From an uncultured Nitrospinota bacterium (GTDB lineage Bacteria > Nitrospinota > Nitrospinia > UBA9942), in the NCBI GenBank assembly GCA_964391545.1, contig CAYMMR010000002.1, positions 1 to 34,873 on the forward strand: a stretch of 34,873 nt of DNA, written 5' to 3'. Positions 612 to 34,873 of this stretch are shown here, one piece after another (positions within the stretch are counted from its first letter, which is position 1; every line of letters begins with the position of its first letter). The notes beneath the pieces were generated by a model. The model was given only the letters and a program-made list of their open reading frames with translations. It ran no database searches and was not told where the DNA came from. A program made the position numbers and the translations under genes.

Positions 612-720
612 CTGCAAAAACCTTTTCCTGAACGACTTTTTATTTTTTACTTTTGTTCCTCTAACCATTTTAAAAGAGCAAAAGAAAAAATAACGGAAGT
701 GAAGAAAAAGGTTTTTGCAG
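612..720 (+). repeat. long-hairpin element copy A (109 nt)
   Basis: CTGCAAAAACC TTTTCCT GAACGAC TTTTTATTTTTTACTTTTG ... CAAAAGAAAAAATAA CGGAAGTG AAGAAAA AGGTTTTTGCAG. Between ORF 14-580 and pgeF. Confidence 0.9.
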
Positions 721-3312: not shown

Positions 3313-5364
3313 CTATTTGACTTTTAGTTCCTCTATGTCAACCTTCTTTACCCTTCCGTTTTTCATATTCTCGTTAATATTACGGATTACTACCTCCTTC
3401 AATTTCTCCCTTACAAAGTGGGTGTCTTCATAAAATTTATCCCTGAAGAATTGGTCAACGGAATCCTCCAATATTCCTTCATAATACATAGGATTCTTTT
3501 TAATTATATCCGCAGACTCTTTGTTTTCGAGCTCCAATTTTACATTCATGGTCATAACTTTATTCTCCTCGGGGCTAAAGGATATTGGCAATATAATACC
3601 CAATCTTGCAAGTCTTTCTTCTGGAACAGGCGGCGCAGGAGGCGTCGAGGCTGTCTGCGTTTCTGCCTGTGAAGGCTGCTGCGATTCGGTTAGATTCGCT
3701 TCGCCCGCTGCAGGCTTCTTTTCCATTTCCGCAGGCTTTTCCGTTTCTAAAGGCTTAACCGGTTCTTCCACCTTTTTCTCCTCAATGCGAGGTTTTGGAG
3801 AAGGTCTCTCTTTTACGGCTACAATTTCTTCCTTCTCCTTTACGCCGGACATCCATTTTTTAGCAACTACTACAATAACTAAGGTTCCGGCGGCAAGAAT
3901 TGCAAGCATAATAAGCGATAGGATTATCAGTTTCCATGTAATTTTCCTTTTACCGGCAGGGGCTTCTCCCTGGTCTGCCGATGCCTCTTCCGTTAAACCT
4001 GTAGTGAGCGAAGCGAATCTATCAATATCCTGTTGCGCCCCTTTTTTTAAAAATCTACCCTGCAATTTCGATAGATAGGATGATAGACGGACATTCTCCA
4101 TTATCTTTCCGAAGAATCCGGAGCCTTTAGGCTTAAACTCCTCTTCCATATCCGCCATTACATCTATCGGAGAGGTATCTTCAGCTGTATCGGAAACAGG
4201 ACGGCGGGCTTCGGTTTCCAAATTTTCAGATGAAACCATCGTCCCATCTAACGATTCGGATGCCTTTTTCATGACATCGTCAAATTCAGAAGATATAGAA
4301 GGCTCTGGCACAGCTTCTCCAGATACCGCAGATTCTCTTTGCGCATCGCCGATATTCATCTCTACCGCTGTGTCTTCCATCAACTTATCTAAATCTATCT
4401 CTCCTTCGCCTCCTGCTTGTGCCGGTGGTGCGGCAGGCGGATTAATATCCGCCTCGATAGCGCTATTTTCAGGCGACGTGCTTAATGACCCGGCAAGAAG
4501 TTTATCCATTTCTTCCTGACTCAGAATGCCTCCTGTTTTTATATCGGCATCCAATGGGACAAATTCTTGTTCCTGAAAAATCGGCAGATCCGCCTCTATA
4601 GCAGGTTCAGCCTCTTTTTCTTCTTCAACTGCCGCCGAGTTTTGCGAAAAACCTGCATCTCCCAAATCGAGTTCGGGCTCTGTGGTTTGAGGGGTTGATT
4701 CAACAGGAGAGATTTGGCTGACAATATCGGAGGTCTGTTCTCTATTTTCTATGCCGTCTCCTTCCTCCGATTTCTTTTCTTCCAACTCATTTAAAAACTC
4801 ATCGATACCGGCATCCTCTAAGTGCGGCTCATCCTTTTCCGGTTCCGCAGCAACAGAAGACGCAATATCTTCCGTAAAAACAGAAAGCTCATCTTCGGCA
4901 GATTTTTCGACAGACGCAGAAAATCCTTCATTTAAAATGTCTTTAAGCCGCTCTTCTCCAGGAAGCGCTTTTTCCTTTAATATATCGGATTCTATTTCAT
5001 TTAATAACTCGCCGACCCCATCTTTATCCTCTTTCACATCCGACCCGTTATTCCCTGTTTCCGTTCCTTGCCCCTCCTGCTTACTGTCCCTGCTTGAATC
5101 ATGCAGGGACATGCTTGCAGAGCCTGCCCCGCACTCGATGCTGGGGGCAAGCCCGCCTCCTGCTCCATCGAACATAGCCCTTTCTTCCCATTTTGATATG
5201 TTCTCCTTCAAGCTGCTGACGATATTATTCAATTCAACGGCTTCTCTTTTCTTTACAAAGAATATACTCCCGCATTTATAGCACTTGGCTTTTATGCCTT
5301 CTGCAGTAATAATATCGTCCTTTACTTTATATTTCGATGTGCACTTAGGGCAGCGAAGCAGCAT
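3313..5364 (-). CDS. MJ0042-type zinc-ribbon protein with long acidic linker, one TM helix and a FliL-like C-terminal domain
   Basis: N-terminus is MLLRCPKCTSKYKV..(17 aa)..CYKCGSIFFV. About 450 aa are D/E/S/P-rich and low complexity. The TM helix is WKLIILSLIMLAILAAGTLVIVVVA (about nt 3853-3936). The last ~100 aa (LPISFSPEENKVMTMNVKLELENKESADIIKKNPMYYEGILEDSVDQFF...) resemble FliL. It lies in the flagellar operon. Confidence 0.5.
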   Translation of the reverse strand: MLLRCPKCTSKYKVKDDIITAEGIKAKCYKCGSIFFVKKREAVELNNIVSSLKENISKWEERAMFDGAGGGLAPSIECGAGSASMSLHDSSRDSKQEGQGTETGNNGSDVKEDKDGVGELLNEIESDILKEKALPGEERLKDILNEGFSASVEKSAEDELSVFTEDIASSVAAEPEKDEPHLEDAGIDEFLNELEEKKSEEGDGIENREQTSDIVSQISPVESTPQTTEPELDLGDAGFSQNSAAVEEEKEAEPAIEADLPIFQEQEFVPLDADIKTGGILSQEEMDKLLAGSLSTSPENSAIEADINPPAAPPAQAGGEGEIDLDKLMEDTAVEMNIGDAQRESAVSGEAVPEPSISSEFDDVMKKASESLDGTMVSSENLETEARRPVSDTAEDTSPIDVMADMEEEFKPKGSGFFGKIMENVRLSSYLSKLQGRFLKKGAQQDIDRFASLTTGLTEEASADQGEAPAGKRKITWKLIILSLIMLAILAAGTLVIVVVAKKWMSGVKEKEEIVAVKERPSPKPRIEEKKVEEPVKPLETEKPAEMEKKPAAGEANLTESQQPSQAETQTASTPPAPPVPEERLARLGIILPISFSPEENKVMTMNVKLELENKESADIIKKNPMYYEGILEDSVDQFFRDKFYEDTHFVREKLKEVVIRNINENMKNGRVKKVDIEELKVK

Positions 5365-5454: not shown

Positions 5455-6201
5455 TCAGAATGGGAGTTTTTTAATCAGACTGAAACTTGCAGTCTCTGCT
5501 ACCTCTTCAAAGGTTACCGGTCTTGCCCTCATGGCCTCGACTGCAATCGTTGCCTGTCCAGAACCTTCCCATACAATATTTCCAGTCGAAACATCCCACA
5601 CCTGAAGGAATATCTTAACGGTAGTCTCCCTTGTCGAAATAAGAGATAATCCAAGAAAAGAGAATCTTGAATATGTTGTTTCCGTAAAAGATAACAGCCT
5701 TGGCTGCGCCACATACCGAACATCGAGCGCATTGCCTATCCTTTTAAGGAGGCTTATGTTCAGTATGCCGGTAATATCATAATAATCCAGCATTTCCGAA
5801 TAAGAGCTTGTAAGCCCGGCATTGTTAATGCTGTTTATAGCCTCTCTCGATGAAACAAAGACGATTGAAGGTTTTTCCAGCTTAAATGCCTTTTCCAATA
5901 TATCCGAAACCGTCAGCCTGTATTCTCCAAGGTTGCTCCACCTCGAAACTATCGTAGTAAGAAAACCTATACGATGATCGTTTACATCTTCTATAACAGG
6001 AGAGCGGTATAATTCATTTGCGCTATAGTTTATCTGCTTGAAAGGCCCGCTGCAGCCTGCAATGAAGAAGAATACAGAAGACAGAAGACAGAAGACAGAA
6101 TAAAAAAACCGATTAATCCGCAGATTACGCAGATTTTCGCAGATTTCTTGACTTCTGTCATCTGTCATCTGTCCTCTGTCTTCTGTCCTCTGTCTTCTCA
6201 T
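5455..6201 (-). CDS. putative lipoprotein (flagellar-operon associated, family not recognised)
   Basis: Lipobox FFFIAGCSG follows the hydrophobic stretch YSVFCLLSSVFFF. The N-terminal ~45 codons are encoded by heptamer arrays. Alternative start at M12 (nt 6168). The stop of the upstream maf-like gene overlaps the start (ATGA). Confidence 0.55.
   Translation of the reverse strand: MRRQRTEDRGQMTDDRSQEICENLRNLRINRFFYSVFCLLSSVFFFIAGCSGPFKQINYSANELYRSPVIEDVNDHRIGFLTTIVSRWSNLGEYRLTVSDILEKAFKLEKPSIVFVSSREAINSINNAGLTSSYSEMLDYYDITGILNISLLKRIGNALDVRYVAQPRLLSFTETTYSRFSFLGLSLISTRETTVKIFLQVWDVSTGNIVWEGSGQATIAVEAMRARPVTFEEVAETASFSLIKKLPF
6064..6199. repeat. composite periodic hairpin: (AAGACAG-type)x5 - spacer containing CGCAGAT x3 - (CTTCTGT/CATCTGT/CCTCTGT)x7
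   Basis: Left arm 6064-6100. Three CGCAGAT copies at 6119, 6128 and 6138. Right arm 6152-6199. Covers the 5' end of the lipoprotein ORF. Confidence 0.9.
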
Positions 6202-8435: not shown

Positions 8436-8457
8436 ATATTACCTCCTTTTTATTTTA

Positions 8458-8522
8458 GTGCAAGTGAAAGTGTAAGCGCAAGTGAATTGTCTTTCTTTGC
8501 GCTTACATTCCCGCTTACACTT
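8458..8522. repeat. periodic-arm hairpin, 6-nt units: GTGCAA GTGAAA GTGTAA GCGCAA GTGAA - spacer - TTGCGC TTACAT TCCCGC TTACAC
   Basis: Between the flgE start and the flgD stop. The right arm overlaps the flgD stop codon. Confidence 0.85.
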
Positions 8523-9192
8523 AATTTATATTGTTTACCTCGAGGACACTGCCAAGCGAAACCCTCTGCCCTCCCACCGAGAGAAGCGTATTGCCGTTAT
8601 CAAAGGATACCCCTGTTACCTGTCCTCTTATAAGAGGAGTAACGGATATATCCGTTCCTGCGGGGTCCTTTGCCGAAACCATAAAAGAATATGTTCCATC
8701 CGATAAGGAATTACCGCTGCTGTCCTTTCCATCCCAGACAAAAGAATTCTCTCCTGCATCCTGAGAAGACATGGAAACCGTCCTGACCAAATCTCCCCTA
8801 TAATCGTAGATGTTTACCCTTACCTCTTTTGCGGCAGATGAAAGTTTATAATTTATCTCCGAAGACGTTTCGGCAGAAAGCTTGATGCTGTTTCCTTCGG
8901 ACTTTATCTCCCTGCCTATGATGCTAACCGCCTGGGTGTTATTGAGAGAAGACTGGGTCATCTGGATGTTTTTAAGGTTTTCATTTACATTAAACATCTG
9001 CTCCAGAGAGCTGAACTGCGCCAGTTGTGCGGTAAACTCGGTATTTTGTATAGGATTCATCGGGTCCTGATTTTTCATCTGCGCCACAAGCATTGTAAGA
9101 AAGGCATCCTTTCCAAGGGCTTTATTGTTTTTTGAGCCGTCAGCGCTCTCAGAGCCATTCGAATATATAAACTGAGAATCTAAAACCTGCAT
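8521..9192 (-). CDS. flgD: flagellar hook assembly/capping protein FlgD
   Basis: KDAFLTMLVAQMKNQDPMNPIQNTEFTAQLAQFSSLEQ motif. C-terminal FlgD Ig-like region. Confidence 0.9.
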   Translation of the reverse strand: MQVLDSQFIYSNGSESADGSKNNKALGKDAFLTMLVAQMKNQDPMNPIQNTEFTAQLAQFSSLEQMFNVNENLKNIQMTQSSLNNTQAVSIIGREIKSEGNSIKLSAETSSEINYKLSSAAKEVRVNIYDYRGDLVRTVSMSSQDAGENSFVWDGKDSSGNSLSDGTYSFMVSAKDPAGTDISVTPLIRGQVTGVSFDNGNTLLSVGGQRVSLGSVLEVNNIN

Positions 9193-11323: not shown

Positions 11324-11363
11324 CACATCTATATATCCTTGCATAATTAAAGCGACATAAAGT

Positions 11364-11445
11364 GTCATTGCGAGGAGCGTCAGCGACGAAGCAATCTCTT
11401 GATTTACCAACAGGTTTAGATTGCTTCGCTGCCGCTCGCAATGAC
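11364..11445. repeat. GTCATTGCGAG-type palindromic (REP-like) element, copy 1
   Basis: GTCATTGCGAGGAGCGTCAGCGACGAAGCAATCT ... AGATTGCTTCGCTGCCGCTCGCAATGAC. Confidence 0.85.
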
Positions 11446-11916: not shown

Positions 11917-11942
11917 AAAGAGTTTAGGGATTAACGAAAGTT

Positions 11943-12009
11943 GTCATTGCGAGGGCGCAGCCCGAAGCAATCTCAAAAGAGGATTGCTTCGCCTTCGGCT
12001 CGCAATGAC
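11943..12009. repeat. GTCATTGCGAG-type palindromic (REP-like) element, copy 2
   Basis: GTCATTGCGAGGGCGCAGCCCGAAGCAATCT CAAAAGAGG ATTGCTTCGCCTTCGGCTCGCAATGAC. It starts 27 nt after the small-ORF stop codon. Confidence 0.85.
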
Positions 12010-16353: not shown

Positions 16354-16359
16354 ACATTT

Positions 16360-16435
16360 AAAAGGTAAAGAGGCGAAAAGGTAAATAGGTTAATAGGCAA
16401 GCCTTTTTACCTTTTAACCTCTTAGCCTTTTAGCC
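16360..16435. repeat. periodic-arm hairpin, 8-nt units: (AAAAGGTA/AAGAGGCG/AATAGGTT/AATAGGCA)x5 abutting (CCTTTTTA/CCTTTTAA/CCTCTTAG/CCTTTTAG)x4
   Basis: Between the fliI stop and the fliJ start. The right arm overlaps the fliI stop codon (16430). Confidence 0.9.
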
Positions 16436-19633: not shown

Positions 19634-21235
19634 TTATTTTCTCTCCCTCAACCATTTTCTCAAGAGTTCCGCAGCCCTGTCAGGATGCTCGGTCGTGAAC
19701 TCATGAACCCTATTTCTGAACTCTTCCTTTGTAACCTTTGGAGGCGTAGGCATCTCGGCCATTGCAGCCTCCAATTCAGCCACTGTCTTAGGTATTTCGG
19801 CCGGAGCCATCTCAGCGCCGATTCTGGTCAGCCACTGCAGCAGCGGTCTTATTACAAATATGAAAGACAGGGCTGCCACAACTCCTATCAACGAATATTT
19901 TATCACAGAGAGCCAGAACTGTCTACGAGCCTCAGCCTGCATCTCTCTCTTCTCCGCCATTATGTCTATTGCTTCAAAGGGGATATTCGTTACCTCGACT
20001 CTGTCTCCACGCTCCTGATTGAACCCTATGGCTGTCTTGACAATATCCTCATACTTTTTCATGTCTTCCTGGTTTCTCTGTATATACTTCCTTCCCTCTT
20101 CGCCCTTTTCCCCCTTCGTCTCCTCATAAGAGCCGTCAACCATAACAGCCACGGATAATCTTTTTAATTTGCCGACCGGCTCGATTACCTTTCTCACTAC
20201 TTTATTTATCTCATAATTTATTGTCTCGCTTGTCTTTTGAGCCCTTGGCGGAGTTCCGGCAGTCTGCATCATGGGTATGGCGCCTGGTATATTGGATTGA
20301 ACCCCCGGTATGCCGCTCGGCAGCCCTGCACCCTGAGAACTCTCCTCTGTCCTCTGTTCGCTCCTCGCCACCTGGCTGTCGGGGTCATAGTTTTCCTCCA
20401 TCCTCTCCACCTGTGAAAAATCCATATCCGTCGTTACCCTGACAATAGCCTTATTTCTTCCGAGAACATCTTCGAGCATCGTCTGCACACGGGACTCTAA
20501 TATCTTTTCAATGTTCTGCTGGTATTCCATCTGCGATGTAGTCATTTTGGCCGCCGGAGAAGCATCTCTTCCGCCGGATAAAATATTTCCGTGCATATCC
20601 ACTACGGTTATATCGGCGGCATCGAGCCCTTCGATAGAACTCGCAACCAGATGGACAATGCCCTGAACCTGATTCTCCTTAAGCCTCTTGCCTGCCCTCA
20701 ATTTCAAAATTACGGAGGCAGTGGTTTTTTTCTGGTCTTCTTTAAATAAAACCTTTTCCGGAATAACTATATGAACCCTCGACTGCTCGACCTCCGCAAA
20801 CTGGTTTATAGTCCTCGCAAGCTCTCCCTGGAGGGCCCTTTGATAATTCAGCTTTTGAACGAACTCCGTCATGCCAAAAGAGGTCTTATCGAAGATTTCA
20901 AATCCTACGCCGCTGCCCTGCGGCAATCCTTCGCCTGCCAATTGAAGCCTAAGCTCATAAACATCCTTAGACGGAACCATTATCGAGTCGCCGCCTGCCG
21001 ATATTTTATAAGGGGTTCTCTTTTCCTTAAGTTTTGTAACGATAGCGGATGCATCTTCGGAGGAAAGATTCGAATATAGGAGCTGAAATTCTTCGTTCCT
21101 TGCCCAAAATACCATTACAATAAAAATAGTCATTATAACTCCGCCGGCAGCAATTATAGCGACCCTTCTTCCGGGCGGAATCTTTTTAAATGTATCCTGA
21201 AGCTGCTCTAAAAACCTCTTCGAAAATTCAGCCAT
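19634..21235 (-). CDS. fliF: flagellar M-ring protein FliF
   Basis: LYSNLSSEDASAIVTKLKEKRTPYKISAGGDSIMVP and the YscJ/FliF fold. Start trimmed to MAEFSKRF (nt 21235, GGGGGTG SD), because the upstream 21 codons (MGHGSSFYLSLAPCPSV) are encoded by the heptamer hairpin. Confidence 0.9.
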   Translation of the reverse strand: MAEFSKRFLEQLQDTFKKIPPGRRVAIIAAGGVIMTIFIVMVFWARNEEFQLLYSNLSSEDASAIVTKLKEKRTPYKISAGGDSIMVPSKDVYELRLQLAGEGLPQGSGVGFEIFDKTSFGMTEFVQKLNYQRALQGELARTINQFAEVEQSRVHIVIPEKVLFKEDQKKTTASVILKLRAGKRLKENQVQGIVHLVASSIEGLDAADITVVDMHGNILSGGRDASPAAKMTTSQMEYQQNIEKILESRVQTMLEDVLGRNKAIVRVTTDMDFSQVERMEENYDPDSQVARSEQRTEESSQGAGLPSGIPGVQSNIPGAIPMMQTAGTPPRAQKTSETINYEINKVVRKVIEPVGKLKRLSVAVMVDGSYEETKGEKGEEGRKYIQRNQEDMKKYEDIVKTAIGFNQERGDRVEVTNIPFEAIDIMAEKREMQAEARRQFWLSVIKYSLIGVVAALSFIFVIRPLLQWLTRIGAEMAPAEIPKTVAELEAAMAEMPTPPKVTKEEFRNRVHEFTTEHPDRAAELLRKWLRERK

Positions 21236-21253
21236 AACACCCCCACTTACAGA

Positions 21254-21317
21254 GGGACAAGGGGCAAGGGACAAGTAAAAACTTGACCCATGACCCATGA
21301 CCCATGACCCATGACCC
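21254..21317. repeat. GGGGCAA/CATGACC-subfamily hairpin: GGGACAAGGGGCAAGGGACAAG - TAAAAA - CTTGACC(CATGACC)x4C
   Basis: Fills the fliE stop (21324) to fliF start (21235) gap. Confidence 0.92.
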
Positions 21318-21323
21318 TATTTT

Positions 21324-21632
21324 TTACACCTGCATCCTCATCACTTCCTGATATGCCTCTATCATCTTGTTTTTAACCTGCATCATCATACGAAATGATA
21401 CGCTTGCCTTTTCCATAGCTATCATTACATCGTGAATATTCTCAGCCCTTCCAAGCGCCAAATCCTTTGCAGCCTTATCGGCTTCGTTCTGAAGCCTGTT
21501 CACCTCTGTTATTGATTCTTTAAGGACTTCGCCAAATGCCTTTTCCGGTTTTTCGGTATTAAGCCCTCCTTTTCCATTAAGAGAAGGAATTGAAATACCG
21601 CTTGTATTATTAACTCTTAACTCATAACTCAT
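21324..21632 (-). CDS. fliE: flagellar hook-basal body protein FliE
   Basis: FGEVLKESITEVNRLQNEADKAAKDLALGRAENIHDVMIAMEKASVSFRMMMQVKNKMIEAYQEVMRMQV. Confidence 0.9.
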   Translation of the reverse strand: MSYELRVNNTSGISIPSLNGKGGLNTEKPEKAFGEVLKESITEVNRLQNEADKAAKDLALGRAENIHDVMIAMEKASVSFRMMMQVKNKMIEAYQEVMRMQV

Positions 21633-21648
21633 AAACTAACTTCTTGAA

Positions 21649-21794
21649 CTGTAACAACTTTTTTCTGAACGACTTTTCCCGGTGGATTATAGAAACTTTT
21701 CCTTACACCGCATTTTTCTTTTGAACCATAGTTTAATAATTTTAAAAAAGAATAAAAGAAAAATTAACGGAAGTGAAGAAAAAGGTTGTTGCAG
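21649..21794 (+). repeat. long-hairpin element copy B (146 nt, carries a ~35-nt extra segment in the left arm)
   Basis: CTGTAACAAC..CTGAACGAC..[CCCGGTGGATTATAGAAACTTTTCCTTACACCGCA]..TAACGGAAGTGAAGAAAAAGGTTGTTGCAG. Fills the flgC stop (21795) to fliE start (21632) gap. Confidence 0.9.
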
Positions 21795-22232
21795 TCACCT
21801 CCCTCCAATATCGAGCGCCCTCTGTGCCATAGACTTGGAATTGCTTATGGCAGTTACATTCGCCTCATAAGCCCTCGTTGCGGATAGCATATCCACCATC
21901 TCTTCCATAAGATTCACATTAGGCATTGCAACATAACCATCCGAATTCGCATCAGGATGACTTGGGTCGAATATCATTTTAGGCTCCTTATTATCTTCGA
22001 CTATATCCGTAACCTTAACCTCTCTTATATTATTTGCCATCCGGGATTTCAACACCTCATCAAACCCGCCTGCCGGGGTTGCCGTAAAAACCGGGCTCTT
22101 TTTCTTATATGGTCCGCCTTCCGGAGTTCTCGTAGTATTTACATTCGCAAGATTGCTCGATATAACATCCATTCTTGTCCTCTGGGCAGTAAGCCCTGAG
22201 GCGCTGACTTTTAATGATGTAAACAAATCCAT
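21795..22232 (-). CDS. flgC: flagellar basal-body rod protein FlgC
   Basis: MDLFTSLKVSASGLTAQRTRMDVISSNLANVNTTRT. Start trimmed to nt 22232 (GGGGGG SD), because the upstream 15 codons are repeat-encoded. Confidence 0.9.
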   Translation of the reverse strand: MDLFTSLKVSASGLTAQRTRMDVISSNLANVNTTRTPEGGPYKKKSPVFTATPAGGFDEVLKSRMANNIREVKVTDIVEDNKEPKMIFDPSHPDANSDGYVAMPNVNLMEEMVDMLSATRAYEANVTAISNSKSMAQRALDIGGR

Positions 22233-22249
22233 AAACCCCCCAATAAAAA

Positions 22250-22317
22250 GGGTCAAGAAGCAAGGGGCAAGGGGCAATCAAAAACAAACTTGACCCTTGC
22301 TACATGACCCTTGACCC
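22250..22317. repeat. GGGGCAA/CATGACC-subfamily hairpin (degenerate copy)
   Basis: GGGTCAAGAAGCAAGGGGCAAGGGGCAA - TCAAAAACAAA - CTTGACCCTTGCTACATGACCCTTGACCC. Fills the flgB stop to flgC start gap. Confidence 0.88.
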
Positions 22318-22325
22318 TGTTAAAT

Positions 22326-22745
22326 TTATTTGCTTCCTCCCTGGTCAATTGCATATTTCAAACCTTCAAATTTCTTTAACACAAGCTGGGCAACGGCATT
22401 ATACATAATAGTATTCTCCGCCATCTTGGTAACCTCTTTATCTATATTCACATTATTTCCATCTATACCGGGCGGCGCATTGTCAATAATAACTTCGGGA
22501 CTCACCCTCTCGATTTCCCTTAAACCTGCAGGCAGATGCCTCTCGTGGGTCTTCATTAATCCCTTACCCGATTCGCTGTCTACCACAGCCCTCAACTGCT
22601 CCTCGAAAGAAATATCGCTCGATTTATAATTCGGCGTGTTAATATTGGCAATATTCGATGAGATAAGATTATGTCTCTCGGACCTGAAATCGAGAACCTT
22701 CTTATAAATATCTATACTCCCGCCAGAAAGTTTTAATATATCCAT
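22326..22745 (-). CDS. flgB: flagellar basal-body rod protein FlgB
   Basis: RHNLISSNIANINTPNYKS motif. First gene after a sigma54-type promoter. Confidence 0.9.
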   Translation of the reverse strand: MDILKLSGGSIDIYKKVLDFRSERHNLISSNIANINTPNYKSSDISFEEQLRAVVDSESGKGLMKTHERHLPAGLREIERVSPEVIIDNAPPGIDGNNVNIDKEVTKMAENTIMYNAVAQLVLKKFEGLKYAIDQGGSK

Positions 22746-22788: not shown

Positions 22789-22933
22789 AATATTATTTAC
22801 AAATGAAATTCTAATAATTTCAAATAGTTATAATTATTGTATAGGCAAAAGTTTCCCCTATTTCAAAGTTAAGACATTAAAACCTCCTCTAAAGTCATTT
22901 ATTTGACATGAACATTTTCTTTAAGTAGACGAT

Positions 22934-23052
22934 ACTGAAAAATGACTTTTTTGAACGACTTTTTAGTTTTTCTTTTGTTCCATAATGTAATAATTTCAAT
23001 AAAATAAAGCAAAAGAAAAAATAACGGAAGTGAAAAAAGGTCATTTTTCAGT
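22934..23052 (+). repeat. long-hairpin element copy C (119 nt)
   Basis: ACTGAAAAATGAC TTTTTT GAACGAC ... TAACGGAAGTG AAAAAAG GTCATTTTTCAGT. In the divergent region upstream of flgB. Confidence 0.9.
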
Positions 23053-23086
23053 GCGAACTAAGTAAGAAAACTATTCTTACCAATCA

Positions 23087-24352: not shown

Positions 24353-25312
24353 CTACCTCTCCTTGAATGCGCCCATATTTCTGAATTTCTCCCTCCTCTG
24401 TCCGACTAAATCCTTTGGCGGAATATAGGCAAGCTCCTGTAAATGCCTCCTTAAAACCCTTCTCAATATTCCTGCGGTTGCAGAGGGGTTTCTGTGCGCG
24501 CCTCCGAGAGGCTCTTTTATTATCTCGTCAATTACACCTAATTTAAACAAGTCGTCGGAAGTCAGGCAGAGAGACTCTGCCGCCTCCTCGACCTTTTTAC
24601 AGTCATCCCATAGTATTGCGGCGCAGCCTTCGGGAGATATTACCGAATAAACGGAATGTTCGAGCATAAGAACTCTATTTCCTACACCCAATGCCAGAGC
24701 GCCGCCGCTCCCTCCCTCCCCTATTACTACAGCTATTATAGGAACCGATATATTAGCCATTTCGAGCAAATTTCTTGCAATAGCTTCTGCCTGCCCCCTC
24801 TCCTCCGCACCGATACCGGGATATGCGCCGGGGGTATCGAGTAAAGTTATAATAGGTTTCCCGAATTTCTCCGCAAACTTCATAAGCCTGAGCGCCTTTC
24901 TATACCCTTCGGGCTGAGGCATGCCAAAGTTTCTATACATTTTCTCTTTCAGGTCCCTCCCCTTCTGATGCCCTATTATAAATACGCTCCATTCCTCCAG
25001 CCTGGCGATTCCTCCAACAATGGAATGGCAGTCGCCAAAATGCCTATCGCCGTGCAGCTCTACGAAGTCCTCCGTCATCATACTTATGTAATCCATTGTG
25101 TATGGACGCGCAGGGTGTCTTGCAAGCTGTGTTCTCTGCCATCTGGTAAGCCTTGAAAGGAGGGAATCTTTAAGCCTGTTTGCCTTTTTATGCAGCCGTC
25201 TTATCTCGCCGGAAAAGTCAACGCCGTTATTTTTAGAAAGAGAGCGCAATTCGGCTATCTTTTTTTCAAGCTCTATTATAGGTTCTTCAAAATCAAGATA
25301 TTGTCCTGCCAT
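24353..25312 (-). CDS. accA: acetyl-CoA carboxylase carboxyltransferase alpha subunit AccA
   Basis: [23 protein letters not shown] start, [33 protein letters not shown]. Start trimmed to nt 25312. The upstream in-frame 23 codons are repeat-encoded (see finding). Confidence 0.9.
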
Positions 25313-25318
25313 ATTTAA

Positions 25319-25400
25319 GGGGCAAGGGACAAGGGGCAAGGGACAAGGGACAAGAAAAGTAACTGTTTTTACTTGACCCATGACCCATGACCCATGACCC
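25319..25400. repeat. GGGGCAA/CATGACC-subfamily hairpin: (GGGGCAA/GGGACAA)x5 - 17-nt spacer - CTTGACC(CATGACC)x3C
   Basis: Fills the dnaE stop (25402) to accA start (25312) gap. Confidence 0.92.
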
Positions 25401-25401
25401 T

Positions 25402-28400
25402 TTATTCAAAGTATACCACATCATCTCCAAAGATACCTTCAATATCTTTAATCATCAAATCATCCGGGGAGACCTGAAAAGTTTTATCAAGCCCTATGTT
25501 TATCTGGCTCTTATCCGGGAAAAAAATATGGAGGAAGATGTTATTTTTCCCTTTTCTCAACGATAAAACCTCTTTCAAGCGAATCAGCGTATCCTTTTCC
25601 AGTCCTACCGCCTGAATGTTTATGTGAACCTTTGAAGAGAGCCTTTCCCTTATGTTTAAGAGAGAGAAAATCTCCCTTGCAATTATCTTTGTCGAATCGT
25701 CTTCTGCGCTTATGCTCCCCTTAACCCAGATAGGGTCTTCCCCTTCGATGAGGCTTAACGCCGTCTTATACAAGTCGGGAAATATTATCATCTCCGATGA
25801 GCCATGAAGGTCTTCGAGTGTCGCAAATGCCATTGTATCGCCCTTTTTCGTAACCTGAGTCCTGTATTTGCTTATAACCCCTGCAATGCTTATCTCCCTC
25901 CCGTTCTTTATATCCTGAAGGGTCTGAGTATTTACATTCGTAAAATGTCTTATATCTTTTTCGAATCTCGAGAGGGGATGTCCGGATATATAAAAACCAA
26001 GGGATTCTTTTTCATAGGATAAAAGTTCCTTTTCTGTCCATTCTAAATCAGGGACTGGAGACTGGAGACTGGAGACTTGTTTTTTACCGGCGCCAAGCCC
26101 CAAGCCTCCAGCCCCTATCCCAAAATTATCGAACATATTATACTGCCCTCTCTCCCTGTCTTTCTGAACTGTCTGTGCGTTGTTTATAGTCGCATCGAGG
26201 CCGTTTATCATGGATGCCCTATAGGTTTTTGGAGATAGGTTTTTAGAATCGGCTGTCCCGTCGAATGCACCGCACTTTATGAGGCTTTCTATTACCTTTC
26301 TGTTTACCGCCCTCAAATCAACACTCTCGCAAAAATCCATCAGGGAGTTAAAACTACCCTTTGCCTCTCTTGCCTTCAATATCGCCTCTACTGCGCTTCC
26401 TCCTACATTTTTTACAGCCGCAAGGCCAAACCTAATTCCTCCCCTTGCCCCTTCCTCATAAGCGGTTGTAAAATCGCTAAAACTCTCATTAATATCCGGC
26501 GGAAGCACCAGTATACCCATATCCTTGCACTCGGCTATATACTGTATCAGCTTATCCGTATTCCCCATTTCGCTCGAAAGCAGCGCAGACATAAACTCCA
26601 GCGGATAGTGCGACTTGAGATATGCTGTCTGATAAGCAACAAGGGCATAAGCAGCGCTGTGCGATTTATTAAACCCGTAACCTGCAAAATGCTCCATCAG
26701 GTCGAATATCTTATCCGCCTTATCCTCCGGTATCCCTTTGGCTGCGGCGCCCTTTACAAACTTCTCCCTCTGCTGAGCCATCTCCTCGGGTTTCTTCTTA
26801 CCCATCGCCCTTCTGAGCGTATCCGCAGCCCCCATGCTGAAGCCGCCGAGCGTTCCGGCTATTCTCATAACCTGCTCCTGATAAAGTATTACGCCATAAG
26901 TCTCCTTCAAAATATCATCCAATTGTGGAACTATATTTTTTATAGAAACGGTTCCGTGTTTTCTTTTAATAAAATCATCCACCATTCCGCTGCCGAGCGG
27001 TCCCGGGCGGTATAATGCAACCAGGGCTATAACATCCTCAAAAACCTCCGGTTTTAACTTCCTTAATATATCCCTCAATCCCGAGCTTTCAAGCTGAAAT
27101 ACGCCAAATGTTCTTGCATCGCTCAAGAGCTTATATGTATCTTTATCGTCCAAAGGTATATTCTCTATATTGAAATCCTTCTCATATTTACTCCTGATAA
27201 GCTCCTCTGTTTTTCTTATAACAGTAAGAGTTCTCAAGCCGAGGAAATCCATCTTTAATAGCCCGAGTTTTTCAATATCCTCCATCGGATACTGGGTCGT
27301 TATCTCGCCCCTATTAGCCTTATAAAGAGGCATGAATTCCGTAAGAGGCGCAGGAGATATGACAACGCCCGCTGCATGGGTTGAGGCGTGTCTCGGAAGC
27401 CCCTCGAGCCTTCTCGCTATATCGAGGAGGCTCTTAACCCTCTCGTCCTTTTTTTCGAACTCCTTAAATCTCGGCTCTTCTTTTATCGCATCGTCCAGCG
27501 TGATATTCAGCCTGTTCGGAACCAATTTGGCAATCCTGTCCGCATCGCTGTATGGCATTGCCATCGCCCTGCCTACATCTCTTATAACCGCCTTTGCATT
27601 CATGCTTCCAAAAGTTATTATCTGTGCGACATTTCCGTATTTTTCCGTTACATAGGCTATTACCTCGTCTCTCCTTTCCATGCAGAAATCTATATCTATA
27701 TCCGGCATGCTTATCCTCTCCGGGTTTAAAAACCTCTCGAAGAGCAGTCCATATTTTATCGGGTCGAGGTCGGTAATCCGTAAAGAGTAAGCAACCAGAC
27801 TTCCCGCTGCAGACCCCCTGCCGGGTCCCACAGGGATCCCTTTTCTTCGCGCATAATCTATAAAGTCCCACACGATGAGAAAATATCCCGAGTATCCCAT
27901 AGTCTTTATCATCTTGATCTCATTTTCCAATCTATCGAAATATACCTTTCTTATATCTTCTTCTGCCCCCTGACCCCTGACCCCCGACCCTTCTTTTTTA
28001 AGCCTTGCCTCCAAGCCGTGTATTGCCATATCACGAAGGTAGCCGTCCAGAGTAGTATCGGAAGGGACATCGTAGCGCGGCAGGTGAATCTGGTCGAATC
28101 TCATATCCAGATTGCATCTCTCCGCTATTTCCATAGTGTTTGAGATAGCCTCCGGCGCCTCTTTAAAGAGGTGCTTCATCTCCTGAGGAGATTTAAAATA
28201 AAACTGATTCGTAGTAAACCGCATCCTCTTAGGGTCGTCGGTCGTCTTGCCCGTCTGAATGCAGAGGAGAATCTCATGTGCATCGGCATCCTTTTCATCC
28301 ATATAATGGCAATCGTTTGTAGCTGCAAGCGGGATGGAGAGCTTCTTTGCCATCTCCAGCATATCCCTGTTTATACCCTTCTGGTCGGGTATATTCTGGT

Positions 28401-29294: not shown

Positions 29295-29313
29295 AAATCC
29301 CTCCAAAAATTCA

Positions 29314-29375
29314 GGGGCAAGGGGCAAGGGGCAAGGGACAAGTATATTTTTATCTTGACCCATGACCCATGACCC
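29314..29375. repeat. GGGGCAA/CATGACC-subfamily hairpin: (GGGGCAA)x3 GGGACAAG - TATATTTTTAT - CTTGACC CATGACC CATGACCC
   Basis: Fills the guaA stop (29386) to FYDLN-acid start (29294) gap. Confidence 0.92.
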
Positions 29376-29385
29376 TTCTGTTTTC

Positions 29386-30957
29386 CTATTCCCACTCTAT
29401 CGTGCTCGGTGGTTTTGAGCTGATGTCATAAACAACCCTGTTTACCCCTTTTACCTCATTAATTATACGATTCGATATGCTGCCAAGCAAATCATAAGGA
29501 AGCTTTGCCCAATCGGCAGTCATGCCGTCCGTGCTTGTTACAGCCCTAAGCCCTATAACATTCTCATAAGTCCTTTCATCCCCCATAACACCAACTGTCT
29601 TGACAGGCAAAAGGACTGCAAAAGACTGCCATATCTCCCTGTAAAGACCTGCCTTTTTAATCTCCTCGAGGACAATTGCATCAGCCTCTCTCAATATATC
29701 GAGCCTCTCCTTTGTAACCTCGCCTAAAACCCGTATAGCAAGCCCCGGTCCCGGGAACGGCTGGCGCCACAAAACATCATCAGGCATATCCAATTCCTTG
29801 CCGAGAAGCCTTACCTCATCTTTAAACAATTCCCTCAAAGGTTCGATTAACTCAAACTCCATATCCGTAGGGAGCCCTCCTACATTGTGATGCGTCTTTA
29901 TTGTAGCAGACGGACCTTTAAATGATATGCTTTCGATTACATCCGGGTAAAGCGTTCCCTGCGCAAGAAAATCGAACCCCCCTATTTTTTTTGATTCATC
30001 TTCGAATACTGCGATAAATTCCCTTCCTATAATCTTCCTTTTTTCTTCCGGGTCGGTAACGGCTCTTAACTTATTTAAAAATCTCTCTTCTGCATCGGCA
30101 TATATCAATTTTATATGAAAATTATCTCTGAAAATGGATAAAACCTTCTCCGCCTCTCCCTTTCTCAACAGCCCGTTATTTACAAAAACACAAATAAGCC
30201 TGCCGCCTATCGCCTTATGCGCCAAAACCGCCGTAACCGATGAATCGACACCTCCGCTTAAAGCGCACATTACCCTCTTTTTGTCAACTATCTTTCTAAT
30301 ATTCTCTACAGAATATTCTGCAAAAGACGCCATTGTCCATGACGGAGAACAGCGGCAGATATTATAAAGAAAATTTTTAAAAAAATCCATACCTTTCGGA
30401 GTATGAGTTACCTCAGGGTGAAACTGGAGGCCGAAGAGCCTCGAATCCTTGAACTTCATGGCTGCAACAGGAGAATTATCGGTATGGGCAATACTTATAA
30501 ATCCATCCGGCATTTTTTCAATACGATCGCCGTGGCTCATCCAAACCGTAACGGAGCGTTGAGTGTTGGGTGTTGAGTGTTGAGAAATGTTTTTGAATAT
30601 ATCTGAATCGTCATCAATGAGCAGTTCTGCCTTTCCATATTCCCTTTTTGCCGATTTCGATACCACCCCGCCTAAAAGATGGGTCATCAACTGCATCCCA
30701 TAGCATATACCAAGCACAGGAATCCCAAGCTCAAACACCTTTTTATCCGCAATAGGAGCATCCTTTGCATAAACACTCGATGGACTGCCGGACAATATTA
30801 TCCCTTTCGGATTCTCCTTCTTAATCTTTTCAATCTCCGTATTAAACGGGACTATCTCGCAATATACCTTGCATTCTCTTACCCTTCTTGCAATCAACTG
30901 GGTATACTGAGAGCCGAAGTCGAGAATTAATATCTTTTCCTGATGTATGTCTTTCAT
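29386..30957 (-). CDS. guaA: GMP synthase (glutamine-hydrolysing) GuaA, with a repeat-derived loop
   Basis: GATase GICYGMQ, PP-loop SGGVDSS, C-terminal [10 protein letters not shown]. Confidence 0.97.
30556..30584. repeat. single-arm heptamer array GCGTTGA GTGTTGG GTGTTGA GTGTTGA G inside guaA
   Basis: Read directly. Encodes [10 protein letters not shown]. Confidence 0.85.
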
Positions 30958-31038
30958 AACAATATGATTTTGACTATTACAATAAAATATGCTATTTTTT
31001 TATTATAGCAAGATTTTTTTATTTCAGGAGGTGATAAA

Positions 31039-31281
31039 ATGCCGATATACGAATACAAATGCTCAAAATGCAGCAGCAGGTTTGAAATTATGCACCTGTC
31101 ATCGAAGCTGGAGAGCGCAGTCTGCCCGAAGTGCGGTTCGGGCAAAACCGAAAAACTTATGTCGTCCTTTGCGGCAGTCGGGTCGGGAAGCAACTCCGAC
31201 TCATGCGACACAGGAACCTGCGGTTATCCATCTTCCGGCGGCTACCCCCCATGCGGCGGCGGAACCTGCGGCATGATGTAA
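31039..31281 (+). CDS. FmdB-family zinc-ribbon regulatory protein (CxxC_CxxC_SSSS)
   Basis: MPIYEYKCSKCSSRFE..CPKCGSGKTEKLMSSF. Strong SD AGGAGGTGATAAAATG. Confidence 0.8.
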   Translation: MPIYEYKCSKCSSRFEIMHLSSKLESAVCPKCGSGKTEKLMSSFAAVGSGSNSDSCDTGTCGYPSSGGYPPCGGGTCGMM

Positions 31282-31304
31282 TTTTACCTAACTCTCCGAC
31301 TAAC

Positions 31305-31417
31305 ACGGCAAGACCCTTTTCCTGAATGACTTTTTATTTTTTCTTTTGTTCCATAATGTAATCTAAAAATAGTGCAAAAGAAAAAATAACGGAAGTGAAG
31401 GAAAAGGGTCTTGCCGT
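31305..31417 (+). repeat. long-hairpin element copy D (113 nt)
   Basis: ACGGCAAGACCC TTTTCCT GAATGAC ... TAACGGAAGTG AAGGAAAA GGGTCTTGCCGT. Between the convergent FmdB gene and guaB; possible bidirectional terminator. Confidence 0.9.
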
Positions 31418-31426
31418 CGTTATCAC

Positions 31427-32893
<1,467 letters not shown>

Positions 32894-32909
32894 TTACCTC
32901 CTTGATAAT

Positions 32910-33024
32910 ACTGCAAAACCTTCTTCTTCACTTCCGTTAATTTTCATTTTGTTCTATTTTTTTAATTATTACATTATGGTTCAAAATGAAAATTAAAAAG
33001 TCGTTCAGAAGAAGGTTTTGCAGT
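32910..33024 (-). repeat. long-hairpin element copy E (115 nt, inverted orientation)
   Basis: The minus strand reads ACTGCAAAACC TTCTTCT GAACGAC ... TAACGGAAGTG AAGAAGAA GGTTTTGCAGT. Fills the mutL stop (33029) to guaB start (32890) gap. Confidence 0.9.
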
Positions 33025-33028
33025 ATAT

Positions 33029-34825
33029 CTACCTCCTCAAAAACCCCTTCAATATCTGTCCTTTATCCATGCTCAAGGCAATCGGCCTTCCGTGAGGACA
33101 GGTAAAGGGTCTGCTTGTCCTCATAAGCTCTTTCACGAGAGATTCCATCTCCTCGATACCCAGCCTCTGATTTGCTTTAACGGCTCCCCTGCACGCCATT
33201 ATTAAAATCATATCATTGACAATCTCATCGAAAGATGTATTTCGCTGATGGACAATTAGTTTATCGAGAATATCCCTTATTAACTGCTTATAATCATCTC
33301 CCGAAAGAAGCGATGGCACAGCTCTTATTATAAAGCTGTTTCCTCCGAAAGATTCTATATCAAACCCCAATTTCTTAAAATTGTCAAGATTTGATTGCAG
33401 TATAACGGATTCTTTGCTTGATACTTCCATATTCACCGGCAGCAGCAATGTTTGAACCTCTATCTTCGAATCCTTGATTTTTTGCAAAAATCTCTCGTAT
33501 AAAATCCTTTCATGGGCAGTATGCTGGTCAATAAATATTATATTATCGGCGCCTTCGAGTATTATAAAGGAATCGAATATTTGTCCCACAGGCTTAAATT
33601 GCGAGAGATTGGATTCGGTTTCAGGGGATAATTTAAGTGTCGAGTGTTGAGTGTTGAGTGTTGAGTATCTATTGAAATTTTTAATTCCCGACTCCAAATT
33701 TCCGGGTCCTGACTCCTGTCCTGATATATACCGTTCTATCGTCTCCCTAACCCTGTCCTTATATAGTTCGGAGTTCGGGGCTCGGAGTTCGGAGTTCTGC
33801 TCCTGACTCCCAACTCCCGGATCCCAACTCCCGGCTCTTTTCATGCTTTCCCTTATCGCATCCCTTACAAAATCATGAACCTCGCCTTGTTTTGCAAACC
33901 TTACTTCTATCTTCGAGGGGTGGACATTTACATCCACCATTTCGGGGTCAATATTCAAAAACAGAAAATATGCAGGATGTCTGTCTTTAGGCAGCAGTGT
34001 TCTAAATGCCTCATAAATTGCGTGGTTTATAACCCTGTCCTTTATATAGCGATTATTAACGAATATATATTGCAAACTTCTGCCCGCCATATTTATGGAT
34101 GGCTTAGACACATATCCTTCGAGCGACAATCCGCCCCGCACATAATTTATTTGCGGGGCAAGGCTATCCGTTATCTCGTATCCAAATATCGAGGCTATGC
34201 GGTCAAGAATATTATTCGTCGAGGCAGTATCTATTATCGCCTTATTGCCATTTATCATTTTGAATCGTATTACCGGATGGGAAAGCGCATGCTGGTTCAC
34301 CGACTCTATTATATGGGACAACTCGGTAGCGTCCGACTTCATGAATTTTAACCGTGCAGGTATGTTTAAGAATAAATCCTTAACCTCGATAGATGTTCCC
34401 TTAACGGGCGGGGCGTCTTTTATCGCCTTTACAATGCCGTTATCCAGCTCTATTTCGGTCCCCGAAGAATCTCCGGCGGAACGGGTAAGCAGTCTTACAT
34501 TGGAAACAGAGGCTATGCTCGGCAGAGCCTCGCCTCTAAACCCGAGAGTGGTAATTTTATGAAGGTCGTGAGCGGTCTTTATCTTGCTCGTGGCATGTCT
34601 TTCAAAGGCGAGGGAGGCATCCTCCCTTAACATACCGGAGCCGTCATCCATTACCCTTATATATCTCTTTCCGCTCCCCTTTACTTCTACCGTAATAGCG
34701 CCTGCGCCTGCATCTATCGAATTCTCTATAAGCTCCTTTACCACAGAGGCAGGCCTCTCCACCACCTCACCGGCTGCTATACGATTGACCAATTCATCCG
34801 GTAATTTTACAATCCTGCCTTCCAT
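33029..34825 (-). CDS. mutL: DNA mismatch repair protein MutL, linker region built largely from heptamer arrays
   Basis: N-terminal GHKL ATPase (NRIAAGEVVERPASVVKELIENSIDAGA, GFRGEALPSIASV, VNVHPSKIEVRF). C-terminal dimerisation domain (FIIRAVP, CPHGRP). Confidence 0.95.
   Translation of the reverse strand: MEGRIVKLPDELVNRIAAGEVVERPASVVKELIENSIDAGAGAITVEVKGSGKRYIRVMDDGSGMLREDASLAFERHATSKIKTAHDLHKITTLGFRGEALPSIASVSNVRLLTRSAGDSSGTEIELDNGIVKAIKDAPPVKGTSIEVKDLFLNIPARLKFMKSDATELSHIIESVNQHALSHPVIRFKMINGNKAIIDTASTNNILDRIASIFGYEITDSLAPQINYVRGGLSLEGYVSKPSINMAGRSLQYIFVNNRYIKDRVINHAIYEAFRTLLPKDRHPAYFLFLNIDPEMVDVNVHPSKIEVRFAKQGEVHDFVRDAIRESMKRAGSWDPGVGSQEQNSELRAPNSELYKDRVRETIERYISGQESGPGNLESGIKNFNRYSTLNTQHSTLKLSPETESNLSQFKPVGQIFDSFIILEGADNIIFIDQHTAHERILYERFLQKIKDSKIEVQTLLLPVNMEVSSKESVILQSNLDNFKKLGFDIESFGGNSFIIRAVPSLLSGDDYKQLIRDILDKLIVHQRNTSFDEIVNDMILIMACRGAVKANQRLGIEEMESLVKELMRTSRPFTCPHGRPIALSMDKGQILKGFLRR
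33637..33667. repeat. single-arm heptamer array GTGTCGA (GTGTTGA)x3 GTA inside the mutL linker (same unit as in guaA)
   Basis: Read directly. Encodes [11 protein letters not shown]. Confidence 0.88.
33686..33724. repeat. degenerate heptamer run TCCCGAC TCCAAAT TTCCGGG TCCTGAC TCCTGTC CTGA inside the mutL linker
   Basis: The 7-nt TCC.... periodicity was read directly. Weak. Confidence 0.5.
33765..33834. repeat. periodic-arm hairpin, 7-nt units: AGTTCGG AGTTCGG GGCTCGG AGTTCGG AGTTC - TGCTCCT - GACTCCC AACTCCC GGATCCC AACTCCC GG, inside the mutL linker
   Basis: Read directly. Encodes AGSWDPGVGSQEQNSELRAPNSEL. Confidence 0.88.
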
Positions 34826-34873
34826 AAATTATTTTTAGCATAGTCGAAAGGCTAAATCAATTTTCATTTTTAA

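Follow-up and report, generated by a model that had tools for sequence, protein, structure and literature searches.

A new palindromic repeat family of the MITE type, with a conserved asymmetric loop, in gene junctions of groundwater Nitrospinota

The DNA analysed here (hereafter referred to as the window) is a stretch of 34,873 nucleotides from an uncultured Nitrospinota bacterium of the Nitrospinia lineage UBA9942 (assembly GCA_964391545.1, contig CAYMMR010000002.1), and it contains exactly five copies of a long hairpin element, labeled A to E. Pfam assignments place fliE, flgC and flgB around copies B and C, guaB and mutL around copies D and E, and a YfiH-like gene next to copy A. The initial annotation of this DNA had placed five copies here, all of them intergenic, with B filling the flgC|fliE junction and E the mutL|guaB junction, and this was borne out throughout. 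The motifs TAACGGAAGTGAA and TGAAYGACTTTT each occur five times in the window, for a chance expectation of ∼0.5–0.8 (shuffles), an nhmmer profile built from the five copies returned no sixth, and each copy folds as one long hairpin, with z-scores of −5 to −11 relative to dinucleotide shuffles. The ends of the element lie a few bases outside those first proposed. Alignment of the copies also upholds the common layout that had been described, consisting of an outer stem, a T/A-rich helix, an internal loop with GAACGAC opposite CGGAAGTGA, a second helix and an AT-rich apex. The features are as follows, with the subfamily types defined further below.

612–720, + strand: copy A, type III, heterogeneous; outer stem CTGCAAAAACC/GGTTTTTGCAG
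631–637 opposite 694–702, + strand: internal loop of copy A, GAACGAC opposite CGGAAGTGA
21644–21795, + strand: copy B, type III, beginning with the end sequence TTGAACTG; fills flgC|fliE and abuts the flgC stop codon
21678–21711, + strand: nested module of copy B, ∼34 nt, CCCGGTGGATTATAGAAACTTTTCCTTACACCGC, directly after GAACGACTTTT
22922–22928, + strand: left target-site duplication of copy C, TAAGTAG
22929–23058, + strand: copy C, young type I subfamily; ends ACGATACTGAAAAATGAC ... GTCATTTTTCAGTGCGAAC
23059–23065, + strand: right target-site duplication of copy C, TAAGTAA
31305–31417, + strand: copy D, type III; outer stem ACGGCAAGACCC/GGGTCTTGCCGT
32896–32902, + strand: guaB-side target-site duplication of copy E, ACCTCCT (on the coding strand, the Shine-Dalgarno of guaB)
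32903–33030, − strand: copy E, type III, in inverted (sense) orientation; fills mutL|guaB
33031–33037, + strand: mutL-side target-site duplication of copy E, ACCTCCT; the corresponding 7-mer of the related locus L012 matches at 6/7 positions

The same copy A is present at the same site in another assembly (L165; related loci are referred to by L numbers), and copy D stands between convergent genes, a Zn-ribbon ORF (31039–31281, + strand) and guaB (31427–32890, − strand). The ends of copy E are TGATAATACTG / AGATATACTG. Its last bases make part of the mutL stop codon (33029–33031), and the guaB Shine-Dalgarno is duplicated by it as its target repeat.

The element is 105–130 bp long, or up to ∼200 bp with nested modules, is ORF-free, and is palindromic over nearly its whole length. 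A two-motif pattern scan, using one genome per species, gave 36 loci, 33 of them from four groundwater Nitrospinota MAGs (JACQEW01, MHDI01, MHDO01 and JACQBS01). The remaining three, in Firmicutes, were set aside as chance matches, since ∼4 are expected for the pattern and the nhmmer profile does not match them. A one-arm scan of metagenome contigs added at least 32 real copies, while a scan of viral contigs found no copies of the element. By nhmmer, the 46 plus at least 32 copies are in Nitrospinota contigs only, among the matches listed. The initial annotation had proposed gathering further copies with the conserved core and searching Rfam; at least 73 non-redundant copies have now been gathered, all in a narrow clade of groundwater Nitrospinota among the matches listed, and Rfam 15 gave no match to the whole window at the gathering score. 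Permissive settings returned only plant miRNA-precursor models, at 20–42 bits against thresholds of 70–250. Contigs 99.9–100% identical to the window were found in JGI samples 3300022563 and 3300009691 and in ENA ERZ27245644; in the three near-identical contigs reached by exact-protein GuaB look-ups, there was no polymorphism at D or E and no strain-level flip. The literature linking Nitrospinae and MITEs holds no description of this element. The family is new, while the type of element, a MITE, is familiar. Subfamilies were defined by lining up the flanks on both loop motifs:

Type I: TTGATACTGAAAAATGAC...GTCATTTTTCAGTGTGAAC; about 14 copies, window copy C among them; homogeneous
Type II: TTTCTGGTGAAAAATGAC...CACCGCACAC; about 8 copies; homogeneous
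Type III: consensus ATACTGCAAAAACC...GGTTTTTGCAGTAT; window copies A, B, D and E among them; heterogeneous
Type IV: AGCGAAGAAAGTTTC...; several copies; longer, with extra asymmetric flanks

A MITE had been set aside in the initial annotation, on the grounds that neither terminal inverted repeats nor target duplications were seen. Both are present, and the exclusion does not hold. The arms are complementary to the very ends (type I ends are (A)TTGATACTGAAAAATGAC / GTTCACACTGAAAAATGAC), the young subfamilies have conserved terminal inverted repeats RTTSAYACTGAAAAATGAC..., and the outer stems of different copies are diverged versions of one terminal repeat, with a consensus of about ATACTGCAAAAACC. 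Perfect 7-mer direct repeats at fixed offsets flank 8/21 type I and II copies (TAATTAA, TATCTAA, TAGTTAA, TAAGTAA, TAAATAG and CTACTTA are examples), against 5% when flanks are re-paired at random. Independent metagenome copies show more 7/7 and 6/7 duplications, and the preferred target is AT-rich and TANNTAA-like. Within the window, copy C has the flanks TAAGTAG/TAAGTAA and is almost identical to the ∼14 type I copies of JACQEW01, those with 7-bp duplications, and copy E has the perfect flanks ACCTCCT/ACCTCCT. A ribosome-binding-site coincidence was considered for this AGGAGGT repeat and dropped; it is read as a duplication because its offsets are the same as those of the type I and II duplications and because the L012 ortholog keeps 6/7. 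No target duplication is detectable at copies A, B and D, and for type III as a whole the rate of 7-bp duplications is not above the null.

Across genomes, orthologous sites are occupied, empty, or held by a different subfamily. In L040, whose FlgC is 94% identical, the flgC|fliE junction is empty, reading TAA then GAAGGAGTTATGAG, with the fliE leader directly behind the flgC stop codon and no hairpin, and the difference from the window is exactly the element, with at most 1–2 nt repeated; L041 has a different, diverged copy at this junction. A 160-bp type IV insert in L070 corresponds to an empty site in L010, which has no hairpin either. At one junction, L002 has a type I copy and L146 a type IV copy, their positions differing by a few bases, and at the copy D site L012 has a tandem-heptamer palindrome in place of the element. 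Since the empty sites of L040 and L010 have no hairpin, the outer stem comes in together with the rest of the element, and what is inserted is the complete hairpin. In the L070 insert (about 1385–1545), the old ribosome-binding site is parted from the start codon, and the end of the insert provides a new GGAGG.

The initial annotation had named direct-repeat duplications together with a cognate transposase as findings that would refute its view; the duplications were found, and the transposase was not. There is none among the 30 window ORFs (Pfam), which encode flagellar proteins, dnaE, accA, guaA/B, mutL and similar, and none among the recurring ORFs of 405 kb of related loci, from fragmented MAGs, where the recurring ORFs are housekeeping paralogues. 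A search for lone ends yielded no parent element, the lone ends belonging to truncated half-copies in L096 and L126 and to an internally deleted copy in L001. A non-exhaustive scan of the fetched related loci noticed no RAYT or Y1/HUH gene near copies.

The outer stems had been described as differing between copies while staying complementary within each. This is confirmed: over the outer 14 positions, and as a mean of 49 non-redundant copies, the left arm pairs at 11.1 positions with its own right arm and at 7.5 with the arms of other copies. I used this comparison because column-wise MAFFT covariation of the outermost stem had to be dropped, the arm lengths differing between copies. Covariation, which the initial annotation had suggested testing, is significant in an alignment of 42 copies, where pairing extends to 96.3% of cells, compared with 88.3% in shuffles (0/500 reach the observed value) and 58–66% in slid controls, with double changes in 15/29 pairs; as a pattern, compensatory change preserving a hairpin with a conserved loop is therefore supported. 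Window copy B and L033_2838 have in common the rare B-type module, and have different outer stems, each self-complementary. Pairing is imperfect, and L070 carries uncompensated changes relative to its ortholog in L010. On the GAACGAC strand, the loop is a series of 2-bp helices, between which lie a tandem G.A (5'GA/3'AG) and a G.A/A.A pair. Two to three copies, from different subfamilies, have G:C in place of one A:U pair of this loop, and the mismatched neighbours are not "corrected", which favours selection over templated correction at that pair. For the element as a whole, complementarity may owe more to templated correction from arm to arm than to pair-by-pair selection.

The related locus L012 (JACQEW01) is orthologous to window positions 29455–34873, at ∼84% identity, and has the same rare element variant as copy E in mutL|guaB. 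The two copies are collinear in their flanks, in their slightly asymmetric termini and in the outer stem of 20 bp, whereas the interior is reverse-complemented, and the outer stems differ by a C:G versus T:A double change. Independent insertions in opposite directions would have swapped the termini too, so that it is more economical to assume a single insertion with a later inversion, and the inversion together with the C:G to T:A change fits template switching or recombination between the arms. A second inversion is seen in type IV, where the core is flipped relative to the 40–45-nt asymmetric flanks in L048 and L146 as compared with L155, L072 and L065. Short inverted repeats are reported to have their arms homogenised, and spacers inverted, by template switching between them (PMC5941160, PMC8604942); this one process would give both "compensatory" outer stems and flipped interiors. 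Copy E and its L012 counterpart are 94% identical (117/124), with half of the differences in the apex, while the four-fold degenerate sites of guaB, mutL and guaA are 59–64% identical between the same two loci. Purifying selection thus acts on the core at the mutL|guaB site, with the asymmetric loop included; copying from other copies is an unlikely source of this identity, because the variant is rare.

The copies are also strongly oriented. Between co-directional genes, 50/55 non-redundant copies are antisense to them (91%; p = 2e-10), and copies lie 4–15 nt after the upstream stop codon and 15–28 nt before the next start. The GAACGAC strand folds ∼5 kcal/mol better than its complement in 62/68 copies, in part through a constant contribution of the shared core. 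In the outer arms of types III and IV, transition mismatches on this strand comprise 28 G:T and 6 A:C, an excess that is partly inherited, with unique events numbering roughly 16 vs 6; deamination linked to transcription or replication would be expected to produce the opposite bias. From these biases it follows that the single-stranded form that matters, if any, is the strand usually absent from mRNA. Strand-biased folding and the G:T excess point to selection on a single strand, and are not predicted by arm-to-arm copying alone. Promoter and terminator scans in and beside the copies gave nothing above shuffled expectation, and no promoter-like signal for an antisense RNA. GC skew follows only the coding strand, so that replication direction is not inferable from it.

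I favour, with a probability of about 0.7, the reading that these copies form a trans-mobilised palindromic MITE family, whose arms evolve in concert and whose loop is held by selection. Copies would be moved in trans by a putative transposase making staggered cuts. After insertion, the arms of each copy would co-evolve by template switching or recombination between them, a mutation in one arm being transferred to the other, which would yield "compensatory", copy-specific outer stems; the same exchange may occasionally flip the interior, as at one orthologous site and in one subfamily. The asymmetric internal loop, with its tandem G.A motif on the GAACGAC strand, would escape homogenisation and be maintained by purifying selection, most likely as the place where a protein, the transposase and/or a host factor, recognises the element. 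At operon junctions, old copies would be retained, and their orientation relative to genes filtered, to 91% antisense. Some observations count against this explanation. Neither a transposase nor a full-length parent was found in the window, in the 405 kb or from the lone ends; copies A, B and D have no duplication, and the insertion of B is clean; a symmetric cut-and-paste element should insert either way, which is at odds with 50/55 antisense copies; and the A:U to G:C change in the loop speaks against arm-to-arm copying.

The element could be more than a selfish MITE, which I consider a possibility worth entertaining, at odds well short of even. It may be a persistent, vertically retained and strand-specific structured module, in which the GAACGAC-strand hairpin with its tandem G.A loop could be read by a dedicated protein, for example a domesticated transposase; by analogy, this would resemble the REPIN-RAYT partnership, here built on a duplication-making transposon. 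Or it may act in translation: the mRNA-sense loop UCACUUCC resembles the 16S anti-Shine-Dalgarno tail in sequence, and could tune the downstream cistron at dozens of operon junctions. If true, either would account for both the 91% orientation bias and the 94% identity beside saturated neutral sites.

An exapted MITE acting as a structured, cis-acting intercistronic RNA, which would control mRNA processing, stability or translation and evolve by classical compensatory change, is rather unlikely. It would explain why covariation is significant and extends to one pair within the internal loop, why G:U-type intermediates are commoner than A:C, why placement between stop and start codons is tight, and why conservation of the orthologous copy far exceeds that of neutral sites; moreover, elements of the ERIC/Correia type are known to act so, and can change mRNA processing (PMC10969869). 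Yet the better-folding strand, with the purine mismatches, is antisense to mRNA in 50/55 copies, promoter- and terminator-like signals in or beside copies are not above chance, and there is no Rfam family, only sub-threshold plant miRNA hairpins. Furthermore, the interior flips at a conserved site where the copy is kept, and junctions tolerate an empty state or unrelated palindromes.

Movement as a single-strand hairpin that a RAYT-like HUH tyrosine transposase would recognise, in step with replication, as for REPINs or IS200/IS605 derivatives, is a good deal less probable. REPINs typically are hairpin repeats in which compensatory changes occur, and such changes are common in them (PMC3116915). 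Hairpin quality is strand-asymmetric here and the imperfect internal loop is conserved, the strong orientation bias could track replication direction, and copy B was inserted without a duplication. HUH single-strand transposition makes no target duplications, however, while those found here are clear, varied and 7 bp long. In addition, the two conserved blocks do not represent one REP in two inverted copies, a GTAG-like tetranucleotide is lacking, and no such gene was noticed near any copy in the non-exhaustive scan. If genes follow replication, the favoured strand would be the leading-strand template, opposite to IS608-type elements. The remaining reading, raised in the initial annotation, is that only a core is mobile and inserts either way into the loops of existing gene-end hairpins, the outer stems being host sequence. 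This I regard as very improbable. Outer stems do differ among copies, the interior occurs in both orientations relative to the outer sequence, and L028 has a bare short hairpin, CACTGCAAAAA-AAAGG-TTTTTGCAGTG, without an interior; but the orthologous sites of L040 (for copy B) and L010 are empty and without a hairpin, which refutes this mode of insertion at the sites where it can be tested. The target duplications lie outside the outer stem, and in the outer stems a single terminal repeat is recognisable in homologous variants. Copy E and L012, with common rare variants in stem and interior and collinear asymmetric termini, fit one insertion that was later inverted.

The trans-mobilised MITE family favoured here can be compared with several known systems. 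It is small and non-coding, with terminal inverted repeats, copy-varying duplications, and dispersed copies for which empty sites exist, as is the case for MITEs. With the ERIC and Correia (CREE) MITEs it has in common a length of about 100–150 bp, a non-coding and nearly all palindromic sequence, numerous copies in the transcribed spacers between operon genes, terminal inverted repeats with a target duplication, and presence or absence between related genomes. It differs from these in showing no sequence similarity to them, in a duplication of 7 bp rather than TA, and in that its best-conserved part is the internal asymmetric loop and not the termini; also, 91% of copies have one orientation relative to genes, the interior can be inverted in place, and the host is an uncultured Nitrospinota clade. 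REPINs are likewise long hairpin repeats of ∼100 nt with conserved blocks, variable complementary segments and long persistence at orthologous sites. However, they are two inverted copies of one REP and have no target duplication, whereas the element here has 7-bp duplications, and its left block TTGAACGACTTTTTA differs from the reverse complement of its right block, TTCACTTCCGTTA; the variable part is the outer stem, where in REPINs it is the spacer. IS200/IS605-derived elements have separate subterminal hairpins, no terminal inverted repeats, a fixed tetra- or pentanucleotide target and no duplication, in contrast to the single whole-element hairpin, terminal inverted repeats and variable 7-bp duplications seen here. 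The arm homogenisation and spacer inversion of template-switch (quasipalindrome) correction match the double changes and flipped interiors (PMC5941160, PMC8604942). Such correction is a mutational process, not an element family, and leaves the conserved loop and the strand and orientation biases unaccounted for. The flip/flop termini of parvoviruses are two states arising from hairpin-primed replication of a linear genome end. They are alike in having an asymmetric interior, two orientations and a constant outer stem, but the element here is chromosomal, and the likeness is one of analogy only.

With five copies in 35 kb, this is a dense repeat family for a poorly known uncultured phylum, whose host junctions are in operons of flagellar, mutL-guaB and other housekeeping genes. 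It also offers a natural test case, one orthologous copy combining a templated-looking double change, an inverted interior and a constrained asymmetric loop, and the family can be used to separate selection on pairing from arm-to-arm template switching in palindromic repeats. A practical lesson from it is that a palindromic DNA repeat may covary without this being, by itself, evidence of a functional RNA. The orientation bias, the strand bias and the conservation in place leave room for a host-level function, and the two biases are most worth pursuing.

Smaller modules are found within the copies. A ∼32-nt module, CCGGTGGATTATAnAACTTTTCCTnnCACCGC, occurs at one fixed point, after GAACGACTTTT, in copies of types I, II and III (window about 21678–21711; L033 2838–2977; L070 2097–2233; L115 669–800), and the orthologous copies of L070 and L010 differ in having or lacking it. 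A longer form is seen in L070 5–199, L101 109–315 and L142 1294–1486, and a 62-nt version resembles an inverted duplication of the module. The module may be either a nested site-specific mini-element or a sequence spread by conversion between copies. In several subfamilies, a G+C-rich mini-hairpin, CCAACCCCCCTCAATCCCCCCTTTTTTAAAGGGGGGAGGAAGGGGGGTT, replaces the AT-rich apex, in the following copies:

L070 5–199
L082 1165–1300
L101 109–315
L116 1980–2126
L121 1–96
L126 4846–4981
L142 1294–1486
L147 4648–4781

The copy at L116 1980–2126 is a chimera whose left arm, GACTGCAAAAACC, is of type III and whose right arm, GGTCATTTTTCAGTGTGAAC, is of type I, the two being non-complementary; either two copies have recombined, or sequences were joined at the repeat during assembly. 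Decayed copies comprise a bare outer-stem hairpin without interior (L028 2343–2372), an internally deleted copy (L001 5489–5541), an apex-deleted copy (L048 6892–6958), and left halves truncated against neighbouring genes (L096 about 4150–4240 and L126 about 4170–4215).

A second, unrelated class of hairpin has arms that are each built of 3–5 7-mers in tandem, such as (GGGGCAA)n...(TTGACCC/ATGACCC)n and (CAGAAGA)n...(TCTGTCN)n, and is found in the window at these positions:

1223–1314
6069–6198
8454–8524
16359–16432
21233–21325
22236–22332
25305–25415
29300–29390

These heptamer palindromes are reminiscent of the STRR heptamer repeats of cyanobacteria. In related genomes, the heptamer palindrome at an orthologous junction is a different one each time, and one of these replaces the element at site D in L012. 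The palindrome at 1223–1314 lies in frame within the YfiH/PgeF-like (Cu-oxidase_4) ORF (726–1475, − strand), to which it adds ∼24 residues between VHGDNIHII and EADAIITN. A short repeat, GTCATTGCGAGG / CTGTCATTCCGCACTCGATGCGGAATCC...GGGAATGACA, was noted at window positions 11353–11375 and 11932–11954 and in L126 (about 4300–4390). Finally, the fliE leader and first codons (window 21600–21640; L040 and L042–L045) are built of a tandem heptamer with a single arm, (TATGAGT/TTATGAG)n, the number of repeats varying between genomes.
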